DNA from: Bacteroidota bacterium
Lineage (GTDB): Bacteria; Bacteroidota; Ignavibacteria; UBA10030
NCBI GenBank assembly: GCA_035291905.1
Contig: DATDRF010000103.1
Span: 2,805-66,804, forward strand
Direction of reading: 5' to 3'
DNA length: 64,000 bases
Of the stretch, positions 2,486 to 56,169 are shown in pieces; position 1 is the first letter of the stretch; every line of letters begins with the position of its first letter. The notes beneath the pieces were generated by a model. It searched no databases and had not been told where the DNA came from. It saw nothing but the letters and a program-made list of their open reading frames with translations. The translations under genes were made by a program, and so were the position numbers.

Positions 2486-4990
2486 ATGAGAAGGTACCAG
2501 ATTGTATTCCTCCTGATTCTAATGGTCTGCCTGACCGCATTGGCTCAGGATTTCCGGCAGGACTGGCCGCGCATCATGGTTCTTTTTGACGAGAAGGTTG
2601 ACGGACAGCCTGTCGACGCGAGAATCGTCGCAACCCGATTGGAAGAGATCTTCCTCGAAAAAGGATTCCGTCTGGTGGATAAGGCGCAATTTGAGGCTGT
2701 GACCACCCGTGACATTGCGTTGGCCGAATCAAACCCGATGCGCGCCAAGGAGATCGGACTTCGTTATGGCGCTGAATGGGTGATCGTTGGGAAGGTTGAG
2801 GCGAGCTTTGACGCGGAAAAAGTGTTCTATGGCATAACGAACTATGAGTACGCGTCGAAAGGGAGCGGCAAGATCATTATCACCGATACCGGCGAGATGA
2901 TCGCAGTAACCTCCAAGAACACAAAGAAGAGCGCGACGGGAAAGAGTTCGGCGTCCACCGGGAGCCTGAATGCGCTCGGGGATCTCATTGCGAACGACCT
3001 TTACGTGAAATCCAGGGTCCGGATGAAGCAGGAGGAATCAGGCCCGCGGTTCATTCAGATAGCAATGGTCGGATTGGATGCCAAGATGATAGCACAACTG
3101 GAGAAATCGCTTCCGCAGGATCTGCCGATCATTAACTATTTGAAGCTTCGTTATTTTGAGAAAGACGGCGCTGTGTTTGACGCGAACGTTAATGGAACGA
3201 TTGATGACCTTAGACGTGAACTCGGAAAACGGTCGGACCTTGCGATTATCGGCTTCACCGGATCACGGGTGGATATCAGCACCAAGGAGAACGAGGAAAA
3301 AGCACGGGGCTCGGTTGTGGCAAGCCCGTTGGAGATAACGCAGTTTGCAGTCGAAAATATCTTCCCGTCCCAGGTGAATTACTACGCCTACAATTCCCTG
3401 GCGACCATTGAGGTCGAGAATTCGTCGAAGTCTGAGATTCGCAATGTGAAGGTCTCCGTCTTTGTGCCGGGATACATGAATCTGCCTTCCGAACAGATCG
3501 TTCCGAAAGTGGACCCGGGTTCGAAGCAGACCTTCAAACTTTCAGCCACGTTTGACGCGAAGCAGCTCTATACGCTCAGTGCAAACGCAACGGCTCAGGC
3601 AAAGGTTGAGCTGAGCTACGTCTTCAATGGTCAACCTCAGACACGGAGTCTGGTGCGCCCGGTGACGTTGTATAACAAGAACACAATCAGCTGGCGACGA
3701 GGCGAGTCGATCGGTGCGTTCATAACGGACACCGATGATGCCGTCGTGGGATTCTCCCGTTACGTCGTGGGAAGCGTGGGCGGAAGCGATATTCTGAAAT
3801 CATCAAAACTCCCGCGGCAGGTCATCAATGCGATGGCTGTCTGGAATGGCGTCAGAGCGTACGGTATCAATTATGTTTCCGACCCATGGAAAACTGCCGA
3901 AGGAGAAATCCTCGACCAGATCCAATATCCGCGTGAGACCCTCTCCTCGAAAACGGGTGACTGCGACGATTCTTCGGTTCTTTTGGCTGCGTGCCTTGAG
4001 AATATCGGGATTAGAACAAAGCTGATCGGTACGAGCGATCATATCTTCATCATGTTCGACACGGAACTTTCTCCCAAGAACGCATATCTCTTGTCTCTTG
4101 ATGAGAAAGAGGTGATTCCGTATGAAGGGACCGTCTGGGTTCCGCTTGAAACCACAATGATCAATGAACCATTCCCGAAAGCCTGGCGAATGGGCGCCCA
4201 GGAGTACTACAAGAACGTCGAATCGGGCGGGAAGATTGAGATCATCGACACGCGCAAGGCGAAAGAGGCTTTTCCTCCGGCCAACCTGCCTGCATCGGCA
4301 AGGCCTTCCTCACCTTCTGCTGAAAAAATCATTCAGCTGGCATCAGCCGATCTTACGGATTACGAATACCACCAAAGTCAGCTGCTCGGTTTGGCCGACA
4401 GGATGAAGACAAGCGAGAATCCGGCCGACAAAAACAAGGCCGCGATGACGTGCGCGAAGGCAGGGGATTACGAGTCTGCTGTGGCAGCATTGGCAGGTGT
4501 CAACACCCCTGGTGCGTACAACACGCTCGGAAACGTGTACCTGATGAAGAACGAGCTCCCGACCGCACAGGAGTTCTACCAGAAAGCTCTTGCGATGACG
4601 ACGGATGACGGGGGAGTCTACATGAACTTTGGTTTGGCCCGATATCTTTCGGGTTCGGAAGAAGACGCGATGGAGTCGTTCCAGGTTGCGATATCGAAGT
4701 ACGAGTCCCGGGAAAAAGCTCTTGAGGTTCTTGGACTCGAGCGCATCAATGAGGTGCTGGGAACAAGGGCTGCGGGAAAATCGGAAGTCCAGGTCTCCAA
4801 GGCGGACATCTTCGCCCTGATCGGGAGATCACTCCAGAATGTCCCCGACAAGGGGAAATCGCTCGCTCAGGCATCACGTGTTCGCGAGAAATACAAGGAT
4901 CAGCAAAACAAGTACGTGTTTGGAGGCCGCCGCGGTGCGGATCCGACACAGATTGCGAGCATTAAGGAGTTCCTGTACTGGAAAGAGTAA
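2486..4990 (+). CDS. Lipoprotein with transglutaminase-like Cys-His-Asp core and C-terminal TPR repeats
   Basis: ATG at 2486 gives signal peptide MRRYQIVFLLILMVCLTALAQD (the track ORF begins at TTG 2471). The motif TGDCDDSSVLLAACLENIGIRTKLIGTSDHIFIMFD resembles the transglutaminase-like cysteine protease catalytic core. C-terminal 200 aa are TPR-like (AYNTLGNVYLMKNELPTAQEFYQKAL...). Confidence 0.5.
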   Translation: MRRYQIVFLLILMVCLTALAQDFRQDWPRIMVLFDEKVDGQPVDARIVATRLEEIFLEKGFRLVDKAQFEAVTTRDIALAESNPMRAKEIGLRYGAEWVIVGKVEASFDAEKVFYGITNYEYASKGSGKIIITDTGEMIAVTSKNTKKSATGKSSASTGSLNALGDLIANDLYVKSRVRMKQEESGPRFIQIAMVGLDAKMIAQLEKSLPQDLPIINYLKLRYFEKDGAVFDANVNGTIDDLRRELGKRSDLAIIGFTGSRVDISTKENEEKARGSVVASPLEITQFAVENIFPSQVNYYAYNSLATIEVENSSKSEIRNVKVSVFVPGYMNLPSEQIVPKVDPGSKQTFKLSATFDAKQLYTLSANATAQAKVELSYVFNGQPQTRSLVRPVTLYNKNTISWRRGESIGAFITDTDDAVVGFSRYVVGSVGGSDILKSSKLPRQVINAMAVWNGVRAYGINYVSDPWKTAEGEILDQIQYPRETLSSKTGDCDDSSVLLAACLENIGIRTKLIGTSDHIFIMFDTELSPKNAYLLSLDEKEVIPYEGTVWVPLETTMINEPFPKAWRMGAQEYYKNVESGGKIEIIDTRKAKEAFPPANLPASARPSSPSAEKIIQLASADLTDYEYHQSQLLGLADRMKTSENPADKNKAAMTCAKAGDYESAVAALAGVNTPGAYNTLGNVYLMKNELPTAQEFYQKALAMTTDDGGVYMNFGLARYLSGSEEDAMESFQVAISKYESREKALEVLGLERINEVLGTRAAGKSEVQVSKADIFALIGRSLQNVPDKGKSLAQASRVREKYKDQQNKYVFGGRRGADPTQIASIKEFLYWKE

Positions 4991-5119: not shown

Positions 5120-6430
5120 ATGCCCTCCAATATCATCGCAATCGTCGGACGTCCCAACGTCGGTAAATCAACACTCTTCAATCGTATTCTCGGTTTTCGG
5201 GAAGCCATTGTCCATGATGCCCCCGGTGTAACCCGCGATCGTAAATACGGCGATGCAGAGTGGGCAGGGACACAATTCACCGTCATCGATACCGGCGGCT
5301 ATGTCCCGCGCTCTGAAGATGTCTTCGAACTGGCGATTCGCGAACAGGCACAGATTGCGGTCGAAGAGGCCGACCTTGTCCTCTTTATGGTCGATGCAAA
5401 AGATGGGATCCTTCCCCTCGACAAAGAGATCGCTGGAATACTGAGGAAGTCCGAAAAACCCATTCTCCTTGTCGTAAACAAGATCGACTCCGCAAAACAG
5501 GAGATGAACTCGGCCGAATTCTTTGCGCTTGGGCTCGGGGATCCGATCAGCATCTCGGCCCTTGGCGGCCGTCAGATCGGCGATTTCCTGGATGAGGTTA
5601 CCTCGCACTTCAAGGCCGAGTCGCCGGAACCACCCGGTGAGAAGCCTCTCCGAATCGCCGTCGTGGGGAAGCCCAACGTTGGCAAGTCCTCTCTCGTCAA
5701 TGCGCTTCTGGGGAAGAAGCGCCAGGTTGTCACGGATATCCCGGGGACGACCAGAGATCCCATCGATTCAATCCTCACTTACCAAGGGGAAGAAATCGTT
5801 TTGGTTGACACGGCCGGACTCAAGAAAAAAAGTAAAGTGGCCGAAAGTGTGGAATTCTACAGTGCGTTACGCACGCTGAGAAGCATTGAGCGCAGTGACG
5901 TGGTTGTTATCCTGCTTGACGCGTCACGCCCCATCGATCATCAGGATCTTCATATTGTCGAAAGCACGGTACAGCGCAAGAGGTCAGCCCTCATTGCCGT
6001 CAACAAATGGGATCTGATCGAAAAAGACTCCAATACGGTCAAGGCGTTTGAACAGGCAATATCGATGGACCTCGGCATGTACGACTATTTTCCTGTCGTG
6101 TTTGTCTCTGCGCTGACAAAGCAGCGGGTTTCCAAAATTATCGACATGGCAAAAGAGATCGAACAGGAGCAGTCAAAGAGAATAAAGACGGGGGAGCTTA
6201 ATGATACCCTTCTTGCGGAAATAGAAAACTATCCCCCAAAGACCTCATCTCCAAAAGAGATCAAGATAAAGTATGTGACGCAACTGAAGACGAAACCTCC
6301 GTTGTTTGGGTTCTTCTGCAATGAGCCGAAACTCGTTCAGGAATCGTACAAACGATTCCTATCCAACAAGATCAGGGAACACTTTGGATTCAAAGGTGTT
6401 CCCATCACCATCATGCTGAAAAAGAAATGA
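5120..6430 (+). CDS. der: Ribosome-associated GTPase Der (EngA), tandem GTP-binding domains plus KH-like C-terminus
   Basis: IIAIVGRPNVGKSTLFNRI and second G-domain IAVVGKPNVGKSSLVNALLG; DTGG/DTAG and NKxD motifs. Internal ATG at 5120 (MPSNIIAIVG) chosen over the track start at 5003. Confidence 0.9.
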   Translation: MPSNIIAIVGRPNVGKSTLFNRILGFREAIVHDAPGVTRDRKYGDAEWAGTQFTVIDTGGYVPRSEDVFELAIREQAQIAVEEADLVLFMVDAKDGILPLDKEIAGILRKSEKPILLVVNKIDSAKQEMNSAEFFALGLGDPISISALGGRQIGDFLDEVTSHFKAESPEPPGEKPLRIAVVGKPNVGKSSLVNALLGKKRQVVTDIPGTTRDPIDSILTYQGEEIVLVDTAGLKKKSKVAESVEFYSALRTLRSIERSDVVVILLDASRPIDHQDLHIVESTVQRKRSALIAVNKWDLIEKDSNTVKAFEQAISMDLGMYDYFPVVFVSALTKQRVSKIIDMAKEIEQEQSKRIKTGELNDTLLAEIENYPPKTSSPKEIKIKYVTQLKTKPPLFGFFCNEPKLVQESYKRFLSNKIREHFGFKGVPITIMLKKK

Positions 6431-36368: not shown

Positions 36369-38057
36369 ATGCCGAATCGGCTTTCCACCCGCCCCGCAAA
36401 GCTCCCTCGGGACGACAATCAACGGTCAAAAAAAGAACTTCTCAAAGAACTGAGAATGCTTCGCCGTCAGTACGTGAACTTGAAAATCCTCAAGTATGAG
36501 CACGACAAAGCTCTTGCAGCGCTGAAGGAAAGCCAGGAGAAGTATCGCAGAATTGTCGAAAGTGCGAGCGACATCATCTACCGAACAGATGAGCGCGGGT
36601 ATTTCACGTACGCCAATCATGCTGCAGTTCGGATCATCGGGTATCCGATCAAGGAGATTTTGGGCAGGAATTACATGGAGCTCCTCCGCCCGGATTATCG
36701 TAAGAAAGCGTATCGTCACTACACGATGCAAACAGAACAGCGGATCCCGAGCACCTACTTCGAATTCCCCGCCGTGTCAAATGAGGGTGAGACTGTTTGG
36801 CTTGGACAGAACGTTCAGCTGATCATGCAAGGGAAGAAGATCGTCGAACTGCAGGCGGTCGCAAGGGATATCACTGAGGTCAAACGCGCGGAGGAAGAAA
36901 GAGCTCGTTTGGAGGTTCAGCTTCGCCAGTCCCAGAAAATGGAATCGATCGGGAGGCTTGCCGGCGGCATAGCTCACGATTTCAACAACATCCTGGGAAT
37001 TATTCTCGCCCATGTCAGTCTCCTGGAGCGTTCCGATCTTCCTGCCGAACAAAAGTCTTCAAGTATCGAAGCCTTGAACAGGACAGTCGGATGAGCCAAG
37101 GGAATGGTCGGTGAACTCCTGACCCTGGCGCGAAAGAGCGAACCATCATTGGAGTATCTGGATGTCGAAAAGGCAATTCGGGAATTTGCCCCGGTCATCG
37201 AGGGGACATTCCCGCGGTCGATTTCATTGTCGATTCGATGTACGCGGGGATTGCCCGGCATCGACGCCGATCCGAACCAATTTCACCAGCTTCTCCTCAA
37301 TCTGTTTGTGAACGCGCGCGATGCCATGCCCAATGGGGGGAAGATCGAGGTGACAACCGAACAATATTTCGGCGAGTCTGTGCGGATGATATTTCGGGAA
37401 GCGGAAGAAACGCCGTACGTCGGGATCAGGGTGAAAGACACGGGCATCGGAATGGACGAGTCCACGAGGGTGCGTATCTTCGAGCCGTTCTTCTCTACAA
37501 AGCCGCAGGGAAGAGGAACGGGCCTTGGGTTGGCTGTGGCATACGGAATCATCAAGAGTCACCGTGGATTTGTCGATGTGGAAAGCAACCCGGGAAAAGG
37601 ATCGACGTTCTTCTTGTTTTTTCCGAAGGGGGTCCGCACTCCAAGGGCGGCTGCGCCCGTGCGGAAACAGGCAACTACCCCCGGTGGGAATGAGACGATT
37701 CTCTTTGTCGAGGATGAAGATCTCCTCCGTGAAGTCATATCGAAGATACTGAAAGAAAAGGGGTACACGGTCCTTGAGGCAGTGGACGGAATAGGGGCGG
37801 TCGATGTATTCATGAAGAATCATAAGCAGATTGACCTTGTGCTTTCCGACTTCGGATTACCGAAACTCGGCGGATGGGAAGCGTGCATTACGATGAAGGA
37901 AATCAAACCTGAGGTGCGGGTCATTCTGGCGAGCGGCTTTATTGAGCCGGCAGTCAGGAATGAAATGGCAATAGCGGGAATCACAACGTTCGTCCAGAAG
38001 CCTTACGTCCCTGACGAGGTTCTGCAAAACATCAGGGAATTGATGAAAAAGGGATGA
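36369..38057 (+). pseudogene. Hybrid sensor histidine kinase (PAS, HisKA, HATPase_c, REC) interrupted by an in-frame TGA at 37092-37094
   Basis: Track ORFs 36369..37094 and 37104..38057 are in the same frame. The stop falls inside the HisKA helix: ...IAHDFNNILGIILAHVSLLERSDLPAEQKSSSIEALNRTVG*AKGMVGELLTLARKS.... Downstream are N/G1/G2 boxes (NARDAMPNGG, DTGIGMDE, GTGLGLAV) and a receiver (ILFVEDEDLLREV...LVLSDFGLP). Confidence 0.6.
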
Positions 38058-38065
38058 CGTTTTCT

Positions 38066-38259
38066 GGTAGTGGGTCAGTTTGATGTAATCTTCAACGCGA
38101 AGGCGCAGAGGTCGCAGCCGACCATTCCGCCATATTGAAATGGTGAATTGATCACTTCGGCAGGCAGGTCTGCGTCCTCCCCGCCTGCCTCAAAGATCTT
38201 ATTGAGGCGGGCAGGCGCGACTCTGCGTTGTAGTCTAGTATTGAAACTGACCCACTACC
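38066..38259. mobile_element. MITE-like nonautonomous element copy A (194 bp): 16-bp perfect terminal inverted repeats, 8-bp target-site duplication CGTTTTCT
   Basis: Left TIR GGTAGTGGGTCAGTTT (38066-38081) is the exact reverse complement of AAACTGACCCACTACC (38244-38259). Direct repeats CGTTTTCT lie at 38058-38065 and 38260-38267. Internal core cacttcggcaggcaggtctgcgtcct and gcgactctgcgttgtagtcta is shared with copy B at 55594-55750. Confidence 0.7.
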
Positions 38260-38419
38260 CGTTTTCTTGAAGTCAGGGTGAAAGTTTTGTATTTTCCATT
38301 ATTGCACGCGCCCGTACCCGCCAACATCACCCACGAACGCTTTTTTTGTGAGTGGCAGTGATTTTTGAGCGTCCCGCCACAAGGCGGGATCTGGACAAGT
38401 GCTTCAAAGAATTTCATAG

Positions 38420-38493
38420 CCCCCGTAGCTCAGATGGATAGAGCAGCGGTTTCCTAAACCGCTTGTCGGACGTTCGAGTCGTCTCGGGGGCAC
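38420..38493 (+). tRNA. tRNA-Arg (anticodon CCT)
   Basis: Acceptor GCCCCCG/CGGGGGC plus discriminator A; D arm GCTCAGATGGATAGAGC; anticodon arm GCGGT-TTCCTAA-ACCGC (CCT); T arm GGACG-TTCGAGT-CGTCT; CCA not encoded. Confidence 0.9.
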
Positions 38494-38505
38494 AATCGGT
38501 TTCAC

Positions 38506-38568
38506 CGTTGTCGGACGTTCTCAGCCGTAGGCTGATCCGCCTTTGGCGGAGAGTCGTCTCGGGGGCAC
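38506..38568 (+). repeat. Direct duplicate of the 3' 34 nt of tRNA-Arg (33/34 identical), interrupted by a 30-bp insert forming two perfect 6-bp hairpins
   Basis: ccgttgtcggacgttc (38506-38521) and gagtcgtctcgggggca (38552-38568) match tRNA positions 38459-38493. The insert 38522-38551 is tcagccgtaggctga plus tccgcctttggcgga. No 5' acceptor strand upstream, so this is not a complete tRNA. Confidence 0.75.
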
Positions 38569-38723
38569 TATCTCCCGGGAATTTTGTGGGATTCGGAGTG
38601 ATTTGGATTTGCTTCCCTCATTGACTTTTTGGGGAAAAAGCGCAACTATGAAAAACATGTTTTCGGCCCCTCCCGCCGCAAGACTTCTCCACTGAGATCT
38701 CACTACTGGAACGGAGAGTTGTT

Positions 38724-40364
38724 GTGGATTCATCCCAAGCACTGAATGCCCTTCACTTCGGAAGAGTAGACGCAGAAACCGATTACCGGCTCAGCCAATG
38801 CTTCGTTGGGACAGAGATGCTTCGTCAGGCCCTGCTTCCCCAACATTCGCTCTTCATCGGCCCCAAGGGATCAGGGAAGAGCGCCCTCTTCAGACTTCTC
38901 TGCGATGACCTCGGTCCATGGAAATCGCTCCTGCCCAAGGGATATGAGATCATCTACAGAATCCCGGCCACCGGACTCCAGAGTGAGAAATACCTCTCGG
39001 GAGTCGACCTTGACGAGTTGAGCCCCCAGACGGCAAACGATTTTCGGTCTTTCTGGCTCCTGTATATCGGCCTCAAGACTGCGACGACCCTGGTGGAAGA
39101 CCAGCGGATGCAGCATCTTGCGTCACATGCAGAGAATAGTCGGATCAGGGAACAATACGCATCGTTGTCGCGTATTGTGAGAACGCTCGGTCTCGTCGAA
39201 GCGGCAAATTCCGTGGAAAAGATCAAACAGAAGATCGACAGTCTGATCGAATCCCCCGAGAATTCTCTGCCAATTTCGGGAGAAGTGGGGAAACGGCTGT
39301 CGGTGAGTTTCCGCAACCGCACCGGGATCGCCATTATCACGCTGCTCGATATCATCGACGGCCTCCTGCAGGAAACAAAATGCCTTTCCTGGATCCTTCT
39401 CGACAAGCTGGATCTCCTCTTCTTTGATGACATCACCAAACTGCGGACATCGATAGCCGGTTTGGTGCAGCTTCTTGTGGAATACAGCGACCGGTTCAAG
39501 AACATCCATTTCAAAGTCTTTCTCCGAAGGGATATTTATAAGCAGCTGCGGATTGTCAACAAATCTCATCTTGTCAGTTACACCCATGACATGAGATGGC
39601 GAGGGCCGTGGCTGATCAAGCTGTTGGTCGCGCGTGCGGTTTCCGACGAGCGTGTGCAAAAACACTGCGAGTCAATTGTGGGTGAACAAGTCGATGTCGG
39701 AAAGGTCATCAACGGCACCGACGAACTTGTCTTGAAGGTGTTTTATTCGATTTTCGAGGAGCGAATGGGGATCATCAAGCGGGAAGGATTCGGCCCGCAC
39801 ACGCACGAGTGGATTCTGAAGAGGCTGGTCGACGGACTTGGAATGAGCTTCCCGAGAGAGATTATCCATCTTGGGAACGTCGCTGTTCAGAGACAACGTG
39901 AGATTATCCGGAGAGAGGGCCTCTCGGAGCGGAGCAAGCTGGTTGGGGGGAGAGCTCTGCGCAAGGCATTCGATGCGGTGTCTGCGTACCGTTGTGACAC
40001 CTACCTCAACTCGGAGTTTCCTCACCTCGCCGGGCACATCGATGCCTTCCGCGGAAAAGAGGTATCGACGTTCGAGCGCGACGAATTGTATCGCGCCTTT
40101 GAAGAGTTACAGCCCAGCGGCGACGACGCAATCAGAGCTGTTCACGACGTAGGGCTCATTACTCCGATAGGAAAGAACGTCGATTCAGCGCTCAAGTTTG
40201 AGGTCCCTCTGCTGTACCGAAGTGGGCTCGGTATTGTTGAACGCAAGCTGAAGAAACGAAATCGGAAAGTTCGTTCGATGGAAGAGAAGAAGCCGCAGCA
40301 ATCGGAATACTCCAAGCCTGAGAAGAACGAACAGGAAGAAATGAACATCCCGCTTTCTCTCTGA
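38724..40364 (+). CDS. Orphan P-loop NTPase of unrecognised family (546 aa) with lysine/glutamate-rich C-terminal tail
   Basis: Walker A FIGPKGSGKSALFRLL (SMC/RecF/ABC-like GxxGSGKS), candidate Walker B WILLDKLDLLFFDD; GTG start with GGAG upstream; tail KKRNRKVRSMEEKKPQQSEYSKPEKNEQEE; no TM segments. Confidence 0.55.
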   Translation: MDSSQALNALHFGRVDAETDYRLSQCFVGTEMLRQALLPQHSLFIGPKGSGKSALFRLLCDDLGPWKSLLPKGYEIIYRIPATGLQSEKYLSGVDLDELSPQTANDFRSFWLLYIGLKTATTLVEDQRMQHLASHAENSRIREQYASLSRIVRTLGLVEAANSVEKIKQKIDSLIESPENSLPISGEVGKRLSVSFRNRTGIAIITLLDIIDGLLQETKCLSWILLDKLDLLFFDDITKLRTSIAGLVQLLVEYSDRFKNIHFKVFLRRDIYKQLRIVNKSHLVSYTHDMRWRGPWLIKLLVARAVSDERVQKHCESIVGEQVDVGKVINGTDELVLKVFYSIFEERMGIIKREGFGPHTHEWILKRLVDGLGMSFPREIIHLGNVAVQRQREIIRREGLSERSKLVGGRALRKAFDAVSAYRCDTYLNSEFPHLAGHIDAFRGKEVSTFERDELYRAFEELQPSGDDAIRAVHDVGLITPIGKNVDSALKFEVPLLYRSGLGIVERKLKKRNRKVRSMEEKKPQQSEYSKPEKNEQEEMNIPLSL

Positions 40365-55559: not shown

Positions 55560-55593
55560 GCGGTTCGTCGCGGGTCGCGGCAATGCAGTCTTG

Positions 55594-55750
55594 GGTAGTG
55601 TCTCAATTTGGATGTAGTTCTTAACGCAGAGACCTGCCTGCGTGCCGACGATCCCAAGTCGAAATTCCCGATGAGTGTTCACTTCGGCAGGCAGGTCTGC
55701 GTCCTTTGCGACTCTGCGTTGTAGTCTATAATCGAAATTGAGACACTACC
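55594..55750. mobile_element. MITE-like nonautonomous element copy B (157 bp): 16-17 bp perfect TIRs, 8-bp target-site duplication CAGTCTTG
   Basis: GGTAGTGTCTCAATTT (55594-55609) is the reverse complement of AAATTGAGACACTACC (55735-55750). Direct repeats CAGTCTTG lie at 55586-55593 and 55751-55758. Shares TIR head GGTAGTG and the internal core with copy A; internal inverted repeat cgcagagacctgcctgcg / gcaggcaggtctgcg. Confidence 0.7.
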
Positions 55751-55887
55751 CAGTCTTGACTTTTGTTCAGAAAAAAGTAAATTATCATTGACCCCGCCGA
55801 CAGTTTCTCCCCTGACTGTCTGCATCATTGGGTCGGGCCCGGCGTTTCCCCAACGCTGGGCTTTTTGTTACGACAACAAGGAGTACC

Positions 55888-56169
55888 ATGGCTCGGGAAC
55901 AAAAGTCGCAAAAGAGAAAGACCGCAGTTCATACGCTCCCGCTTACGAAGCGGAACTATCAGATTCTGGGCGGTGCATTGGTTTGCATCGCCGCAGGGTA
56001 CTTTGCCCTCGGACAGGAACCCTGGGATGGGTTTCTCCCTCTCATTGTAGCCCCGGTGTTGTTGGTGCTCGGGTATTGCGTACTTGTCCCATTTGGGATC
56101 TTATACCGAAAAAAGGGTGAGCAGCCGGGGACAGCAGAACCGGCTGAAGAGATCAAGACTCCTGCTTGA
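55888..56169 (+). CDS. Small membrane protein (2 TM), hypothetical
   Basis: AAGGAG 6 nt before ATG 55888; hydrophobic stretches ILGGALVCIAAGYFALG and LPLIVAPVLLVLGYCVLV. Confidence 0.5.
   Translation: MAREQKSQKRKTAVHTLPLTKRNYQILGGALVCIAAGYFALGQEPWDGFLPLIVAPVLLVLGYCVLVPFGILYRKKGEQPGTAEPAEEIKTPA

Follow-up and report, generated by a model that had tools for sequence, protein, structure and literature searches.

Two short elements in the 64-kb window (the whole stretch of DNA analysed here, 64,000 nucleotides) are very probably copies of one MITE, that is, of a non-coding and non-autonomous DDE transposon derivative which is moved in trans by an IS1-family transposase. The original prediction, which concerned the first copy (copy A), had described it as a MITE-like element with a true 8-bp target-site duplication. 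Empty sites holding the target only once, at copy A in locus L153 and at the second copy (copy B) in locus L152, bear this out. The same prediction had looked for the parent among ISL3, IS66, IS256 or IS1595-like elements; this part has to be replaced, as the transposases found between the same ends are of the IS1 family (PF03400 above cut-off).

Structure and setting of the two copies

The features of both copies are collected in Table 1. Sequence reading and repeat finder agree on the terminal inverted repeats (TIRs) of copy A and on the 8-bp direct repeats around it, exactly where they had been predicted. The preceding hybrid kinase ORF (37104-38057) has its TGA ending at 38057, and the duplicated target starts 0 bp later; tRNA-Arg (38419-38493) starts 159 bp past the element, close to the 150 bp or so first estimated. 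No ORF of 80 aa or more was found within 38058-38267, nor was any promoter-like site above threshold found beside copy A, and tblastn detected no IS1-type transposase in the 64-kb window, in agreement with the earlier statement that the element encodes no transposase. Both copies are shorter than about 500 bp and thus within the size range of MITEs.

Table 1. Positions of the two copies and their parts in the window
Feature	Position	Strand	Basis or remark
MITE copy A	38066..38259	+	194 bp, non-coding
Left 8-bp target-site duplication, copy A (CGTTTTCT)	38058..38065	.	Sequence reading, repeat finder
Right 8-bp target-site duplication, copy A (CGTTTTCT)	38260..38267	.	Sequence reading, repeat finder
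Left TIR, copy A, A-type GGTAGTGGGTCAGTTT	38066..38081	+	Pattern search, repeat finder
Right TIR, copy A	38244..38259	-	100% complementary to 38066-38081 (repeat finder)
Internal core 1 CACTTCGGCAGGCAGGTCTGCGTCCT	38153..38178	+	Identical in copy B, near-identical in L001 and L136
Internal core 2 GCGACTCTGCGTTGTAGTCTA	38217..38237	+	Identical in copy B, L001 and L002
Variable palindrome, specific to copy A	38179..38216	+	Repeat finder, alignment with copy B
MITE copy B	55594..55750	+	157 bp; TIR GGTAGTGTCTCAATTT (B-type) at 55594-55609 and 55735-55750
Left 8-bp target-site duplication, copy B (CAGTCTTG)	55586..55593	.	Repeat finder
Right 8-bp target-site duplication, copy B (CAGTCTTG)	55751..55758	.	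Repeat finder
Sigma-70-like promoter match TTGACT-16-TAAATT	55756..55783	+	Consensus match alone; context, outside copy B

Copy B has the same layout as copy A, with perfect TIRs of 16 nt; its flanking repeat CAGTCTTG had been absent from the original prediction. The two internal cores said to be common to both copies are exact in each (0 expected by chance), and a degenerate TIR pattern gave 4 matches in the 64-kb window against 0.09 expected. The extra palindromic segment of copy A is also real: the repeat finder resolved it as an imperfect palindrome with 14-nt arms that are 86% complementary, the arms resembling the neighbouring core motif, first inverted and then direct. In the alignment of the two copies a gap of 36 columns lies opposite this segment, its boundaries being ambiguous by 1-2 nt.

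Each insertion has a gene end on one side and, downstream, a promoter or tRNA on the other. Copy B borders the upstream edge of the promoter-like site, whose TTG falls in the duplicated target; since the duplication regenerates this TTG, the promoter-like hexamer was left intact by the insertion.

Several features of the neighbourhood were recorded along the way. The apparent hybrid histidine kinase is split by an in-frame TGA at 37092-37094 (GTC GGA TGA GCC AAG GGA ATG) into a PAS/HisKA half (36369-37094) and a HATPase/receiver half (37104-38057), and in L153, an independent assembly, the gene is called in the same two parts; the TGA could be a nonsense mutation, the mark of a pseudogene or a case of recoding. 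Thirteen bases past tRNA-Arg, at 38494-38575, the 3' part of the tRNA (gttgtcggacgttc…agtcgtctcgggggcac) is repeated with a 31-nt hairpin (tcagccgtaggctgatccgcctttggcggag) in place of the T-loop, possibly an att-like trace left by integration at tRNA-Arg. This partial repeat is followed by a large P-loop-like ORF (38724-40364) with no Pfam matches. Beyond copy B, a terminator-like hairpin of 12 pairs with a T-run (55835-55872) lies between the promoter-like site and the ATG at 55889, the start of a small membrane-protein ORF; it may act as a leader or attenuator upstream of this ORF and the tRNA-Lys/tRNA-Leu cluster.

Further copies of the element

Further copies, for which the original prediction had proposed a search, are present and carry 8-bp duplications of their own. 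A full copy with B-type TIRs is found in a Bacteroidota MAG (L001), and a 92-bp internal-deletion derivative, about 94% identical across both arms, in L092; L011 holds a diverged partial copy. The duplications are fixed in length and differ in sequence, being CGTTTTCT, CAGTCTTG, TCTTTTTC and CAATTCAG for copies A and B, L001 and L092, respectively.

When the 21-nt core was compared with the reference-genome collection, from which the window's own genome is absent, one MAG only was matched, at L001 and L002. In L002 the right-hand core tctgcgtcctttgcgactctgcgttgtagtcta lies without any TIR at 3255-3303, directly after the stop of a glmS-like gene; the MAG is the one that holds the full copy of L001. 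This fragment is a copy that has decayed or else the genomic sequence from which the interior of the MITE came. A long hairpin just upstream of the L001 copy (1080-1170), composed of three CACGAAG followed by at least three CTTCGTG units, is built in a motif-stack style like that of the MITE interior (ACGCAG and CTGCGT units).

In viral contigs the core was not found, and the B-type TIR matched 8 times, each time singly and unpaired; these TIR matches look like chance, except the one in L009, which is followed by a TnpB gene. By its LolD homologues the source organism is a Bacteroidota MAG with Ignavibacteriales as its nearest named relatives, and many of its contigs come from groundwater metagenomes.

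The ends belong to a widespread class

A metagenome scan with the B-type TIR returned at least 120 loci. Since metagenomes of soil and groundwater abound in this TIR class, the word 'novel' in the original prediction is only modestly deserved. Within the matches listed plus the window, 48 inverted TIR pairs were identified by script. Perfect 8-bp duplications flank 13 of these 48 pairs, L001 and copy B included, where about 0.0007 would be expected by chance, and another 12 have an 8-bp duplication that is one mismatch off. Most of the listed pairs are 92-495 bp apart and enclose unrelated interiors, some being 0.9-3.4 kb apart; the unrelated interiors between shared ends indicate other MITE families with the same ends. 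Two 110-bp MITEs of the class were also observed in L119 (345-454 and 2495-2604), each with a perfect 8-bp duplication, on either side of a 2-kb segment encoding a phosphofructokinase-like ORF, an arrangement that could function as a composite transposon.

Between copies A and B three TIR positions differ, and both arms have changed together. We considered whether these matched differences reflect a selected RNA helix or two enzymes. Neither idea is supported, since the class mixes end variants: the ends CAATTT and CAGTTT are routinely mixed within elements, and in L039 as well as in a decayed IS (L029) the left end is A-like and the right end B-type. An exact A-type end occurs in L107.

Transposases between the same ends are of the IS1 family

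Elements of the IS1 family have ends of the form GGnnnTG within TIRs of 15-25 bp and produce target duplications of 8-9 bp (ISfinder classification). The ends of copies A and B read GGTAGTG and fit this signature. A published ISAba3-like IS1-family element of Tn6645 has the TIR GGTGGTGTTTCAAAAAG and 8-bp TSDs (PMC6382973), and its TIR is identical to GGTAGTGTCTCAATTTG of the present element at 12 of 17 positions. It differs in being an autonomous IS of Moraxellaceae, while the element here, from an uncultivated lineage of Bacteroidota, is a non-coding derivative of 157-194 bp.

A full-length IS with matching TIRs, which the original prediction had also suggested looking for, was found three times, on other metagenome contigs. 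L091 (302-3734) is an intact 3433-bp element with the same ends and the perfect TSD GAAGCATC, encoding a DNA methyltransferase and a 275-aa transposase. The contexts of three close relatives of this transposase led to two more: an intact 5215-bp element in L164 (755-5969), with the TSD CTCCAACC and a methylase plus GmrSD/HNH cargo, and an intact 3099-bp element in L168/L169 with the perfect TSD AATAATCT. Each of the three encodes one single-ORF transposase of 272-276 aa. The L091 protein scored 33.2 bits against Pfam DDE_Tnp_IS1 (PF03400; gathering cut-off 24.1), and PF03400 matches are precomputed for proteins P0123, P0127 and P0139. The best match among NCBIfam models was IS1 (70.9 bits, E 1e-19), far above IS6, IS481, IS1595 and ISL3. 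As the transposases miss the 100-bit equivalog cut-off of this model (70.9 and 70.6), they represent a divergent single-ORF subgroup. A profile search gave at least 8000 candidates at E <= 1e-20, throughout which the NCBI/JGI name is 'IS1 family transposase'.

The InsA/InsB' pair with its programmed -1 frameshift, typical of classical IS1, is absent from the intact transposases, all of which are single ORFs of 270-276 aa. These single ORFs and the passenger genes of the elements correspond to the single-ORF/ISMhu11-type subgroup rather than to the classical IS1 with its frameshift. A single-ORF IS1 subgroup with passenger genes (ISMhu11-like) is reportedly part of the ISfinder classification of Siguier et al. 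(2009 and 2015). The elements described here have the same GGnnnTG start, the 8-bp duplication (8-9 bp in IS1) and the PF03400 DDE transposase of such elements; L091, L164 and L168 are likewise 3-5 kb long with methyltransferase or restriction-type cargo. In contrast, copies A and B encode nothing and have only about 18-20 bp at each end in common with these three elements. As the MITE and the autonomous elements share no sequence beyond about 20 bp, descent of the MITE by internal deletion from those autonomous elements is not supported.

Could the MITE be mobilised by a transposase of the ISL3, IS66, IS256, IS1595 or IS6 family instead? All of these families make 8-bp duplications, and the ends of IS6/IS26 (GGCACTGTTGCAAA) are loosely like the present TIRs. 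The transposases also gave weak secondary matches to IS6 (26 bits), IS1595 (22 bits against a cut-off of 75) and ISL3 (18 bits against 180), as well as a Pfam DDE_Tnp_IS240 match under its cut-off; IS66 and IS256 gave no matches. However, the IS1 models are matched far better, the public names are those of the IS1 family, and both the GGnnnTG ends and the published IS1-family TIR point the same way. A parent in one of these other families is therefore improbable, and the IS1 family is retained as the source of the transposase.

In the mechanism proposed for copies A and B, an IS1-family transposase made elsewhere would bind both 16-20-bp TIRs (GGTAGTG..TCA.TTTG) and join the ends of the element to a target whose strands are cut 8 bp apart; repair of the gaps would then create the 8-bp direct repeats. 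We infer that the genome encodes such an IS1-type transposase, of the clade described above, and that copy A was moved by it recently.

Among the matches listed, transposase homologues or remnants occur in 9 of the at least 120 TIR-selected loci, and two candidates for the parent were rejected. L027 (P0121), one of the nine, has a different end, GGTGCTGGGCTACTTTGG, when three contexts are compared, and the adjoining B-type TIR belongs to a neighbouring MITE. L029 and L078 gave the appearance of a compact intact IS of 798 bp with the TGA stop of the transposase gene inside the right TIR; they are one decayed insertion sampled twice, in which nothing but the C-terminal third of the transposase is left and a target duplication is missing.

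Cargo genes were noted in other elements as well. L091, L164 and L160 (right end at 5230-5245) carry DNA methyltransferases (N6_N4_Mtase, EcoRI-like, MT-A70) and a GmrSD/HNH nuclease, a cargo that looks like restriction-modification or defence genes. In L045 (230-3097) the cargo consists of IS3-type orfAB and a short-chain dehydrogenase, and in L033 (7145-9705) of a GNAT acetyltransferase.

Occupied and empty alleles

L153, from another assembly of the same species (ERZ27254869), encodes the exact 317-aa kinase protein. Its interval from the kinase to the next gene is 465 bp compared with 667 bp in the window, i.e. 202 bp shorter. This difference equals 194+8, as it should for an insertion accompanied by duplication of 8 bp at the target. 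In the alignment the flanks are identical, CGTTTTCT occurs once and the 194 bp are wholly absent; L153 is the precise unoccupied allele of the copy A site. The contig of L153 does carry copy B (L135), and hence strains with B only and strains with A and B coexist. At the copy B site, the empty allele is L152 (GCA_040960995.1; LolD 93% identical), which lacks the element and reads CTGTCTTGacttttgt, with a single CTGTCTTG.

The copy B site is also variable among strains with 99-100% identical LolD, where forms of 157, 161, 327 and about 46 bp were found. The 161-bp form has one additional GGCA unit. The 327-bp form (L136, L141) contains an added module that resembles the interior of copy A, with a different palindrome at the place of the copy A palindrome, and the stub of about 46 bp (L143-L146) consists of a TIR, a short spacer and a TIR. 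In L141 the right flank of the element is an unrelated peptidase M20 gene, joined to it by either recombination or an assembly switch with another genomic copy, and two assemblies (L131 and L132) break within the element. The copies known for the lineage are thus two in the 64-kb window, a third flank in L141 and the breaks in L131 and L132. Such site variants and assembly breaks are typical of a multi-copy repeat, and some of the internal variants could be assembly chimeras between copies. Hairpin modules are stacked in the interior of the element, and from copy to copy parts of this stack are gained, lost or exchanged, most likely through slippage and recombination between the copies.

These alleles also bear on the view that the sequence is a host regulatory palindrome or structured RNA (a terminator, or REP/BIME-like) which is not mobile and whose flanking repeats are incidental. 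Both copies do lie directly after convergent or upstream gene ends, their predicted hairpins are very stable (z -7.7 and -9.3), and the right-hand core stands alone without TIRs after the glmS-like gene of L002. As a primary explanation this view is nevertheless refuted by the exact presence/absence alleles with the target once; perfect 8-bp duplications of differing sequence surround every full copy, there is no Rfam match, and the same ends flank transposase genes. We thus consider it very improbable. It should be pointed out that a mobile origin, which we prefer, is compatible with a secondary role of the hairpin as a terminator.

TnpB genes between the same ends

In L048 (530-1914) and L103 (69-1437), complete TnpB genes with OrfB_IS605 and Cas12f-like TNB domains fill the interval between two TIRs of the class; the two proteins are 49% identical. 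A third TnpB gene, on the viral contig L009 (11783-12700), has a B-type TIR about 190 bp upstream. Neither of the units in L048 and L103 has an 8-bp duplication, and a search of both against Rfam revealed no known RNA family.

The TnpB genes in L048 and L103 and beside the TIR in L009, the missing target duplication of the first two units and the long hairpin of the MITE might together suggest an IS200/IS605-type palindromic element (PATE-like) that a Y1 transposase moves in single-stranded form, but to our knowledge IS200/IS605 elements have neither terminal inverted repeats nor target duplications, while TIRs and a fixed 8-bp duplication are present in every full copy (A, B, L001 and L092), perfect 8-bp duplications recur across the wider class in the fraction of listed pairs given above, and three elements with these ends encode DDE transposases of IS1 type and not Y1, so that this origin is hardly credible.

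For the IS1-type MITE preferred here, the TnpB units have another bearing, namely that TnpB may ride in an IS1-type DDE transposon. More broadly, the GGTAGTGTCTCA(A/G)TTTG end could mark one very abundant system of IS1 type whose single clade of transposases mobilises several kinds of element, namely bare MITEs, restriction-modification and defence cargo and complete genes for TnpB, an RNA-guided nuclease, a suggestion we regard as tentative and rather doubtful. If true, it would be a prokaryotic counterpart of the Fanzor/TnpB genes riding in eukaryotic DDE transposons, and the MITE of the window would be a minimal, currently active member of the IS1-type system.

Predicted RNA structure

Copy A folds into a long hairpin of -95.3 kcal/mol and copy B into a hairpin of -75.9 kcal/mol. 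Transcripts reading through from the kinase gene and from lolD would, according to these folds, end in a very stable hairpin derived from the element, which could terminate or stabilise them. An Rfam search over the whole window matched only three tRNAs and covered neither MITE copy.

Relation to known elements and significance

Correia elements of Neisseria, RUP of Streptococcus pneumoniae and ERIC/IRU of enterobacteria are hairpin-forming MITEs. Like the present element, they are short intergenic sequences without coding capacity, frequently located just past genes, with TIRs, a hairpin formed by the whole element and length variants due to internal modules. The difference is that Correia and RUP duplicate TA and are linked to other IS families, whereas the element here duplicates 8 bp and has IS1-type ends. 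MITEAba12 is non-autonomous, with the ends of the IS5-family ISAba12 and a 9-bp TSD (PMC6382973); it was likewise recognised by TIR identity with a full-length IS, the likeness being confined to the TIRs, and likewise points to recent transposition. In the literature searched, no paper dedicated to ISMhu11 or to IS1-family MITEs was found, the useful sources being PMC6382973 and PMC3196728.

The element belongs to a well-known kind, and as a find it is solid yet ordinary; the current understanding of MITEs is not changed by it. In an uncultivated lineage of groundwater Bacteroidota it documents cleanly that transposition is still going on. Because occupied and empty alleles coexist in the populations sampled, it is useful as a strain marker, and it accounts for the breaks at these points in assemblies of the organism. 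A TIR class that is very common in metagenomes is hereby assigned to the IS1 family, and GGTAGTG..TCA.TTTG together with an 8-bp duplication provides a signature for annotation. For the organism itself, hairpins of -76 to -95 kcal/mol in read-through transcripts make the insertions plausible modifiers of termination or mRNA stability.
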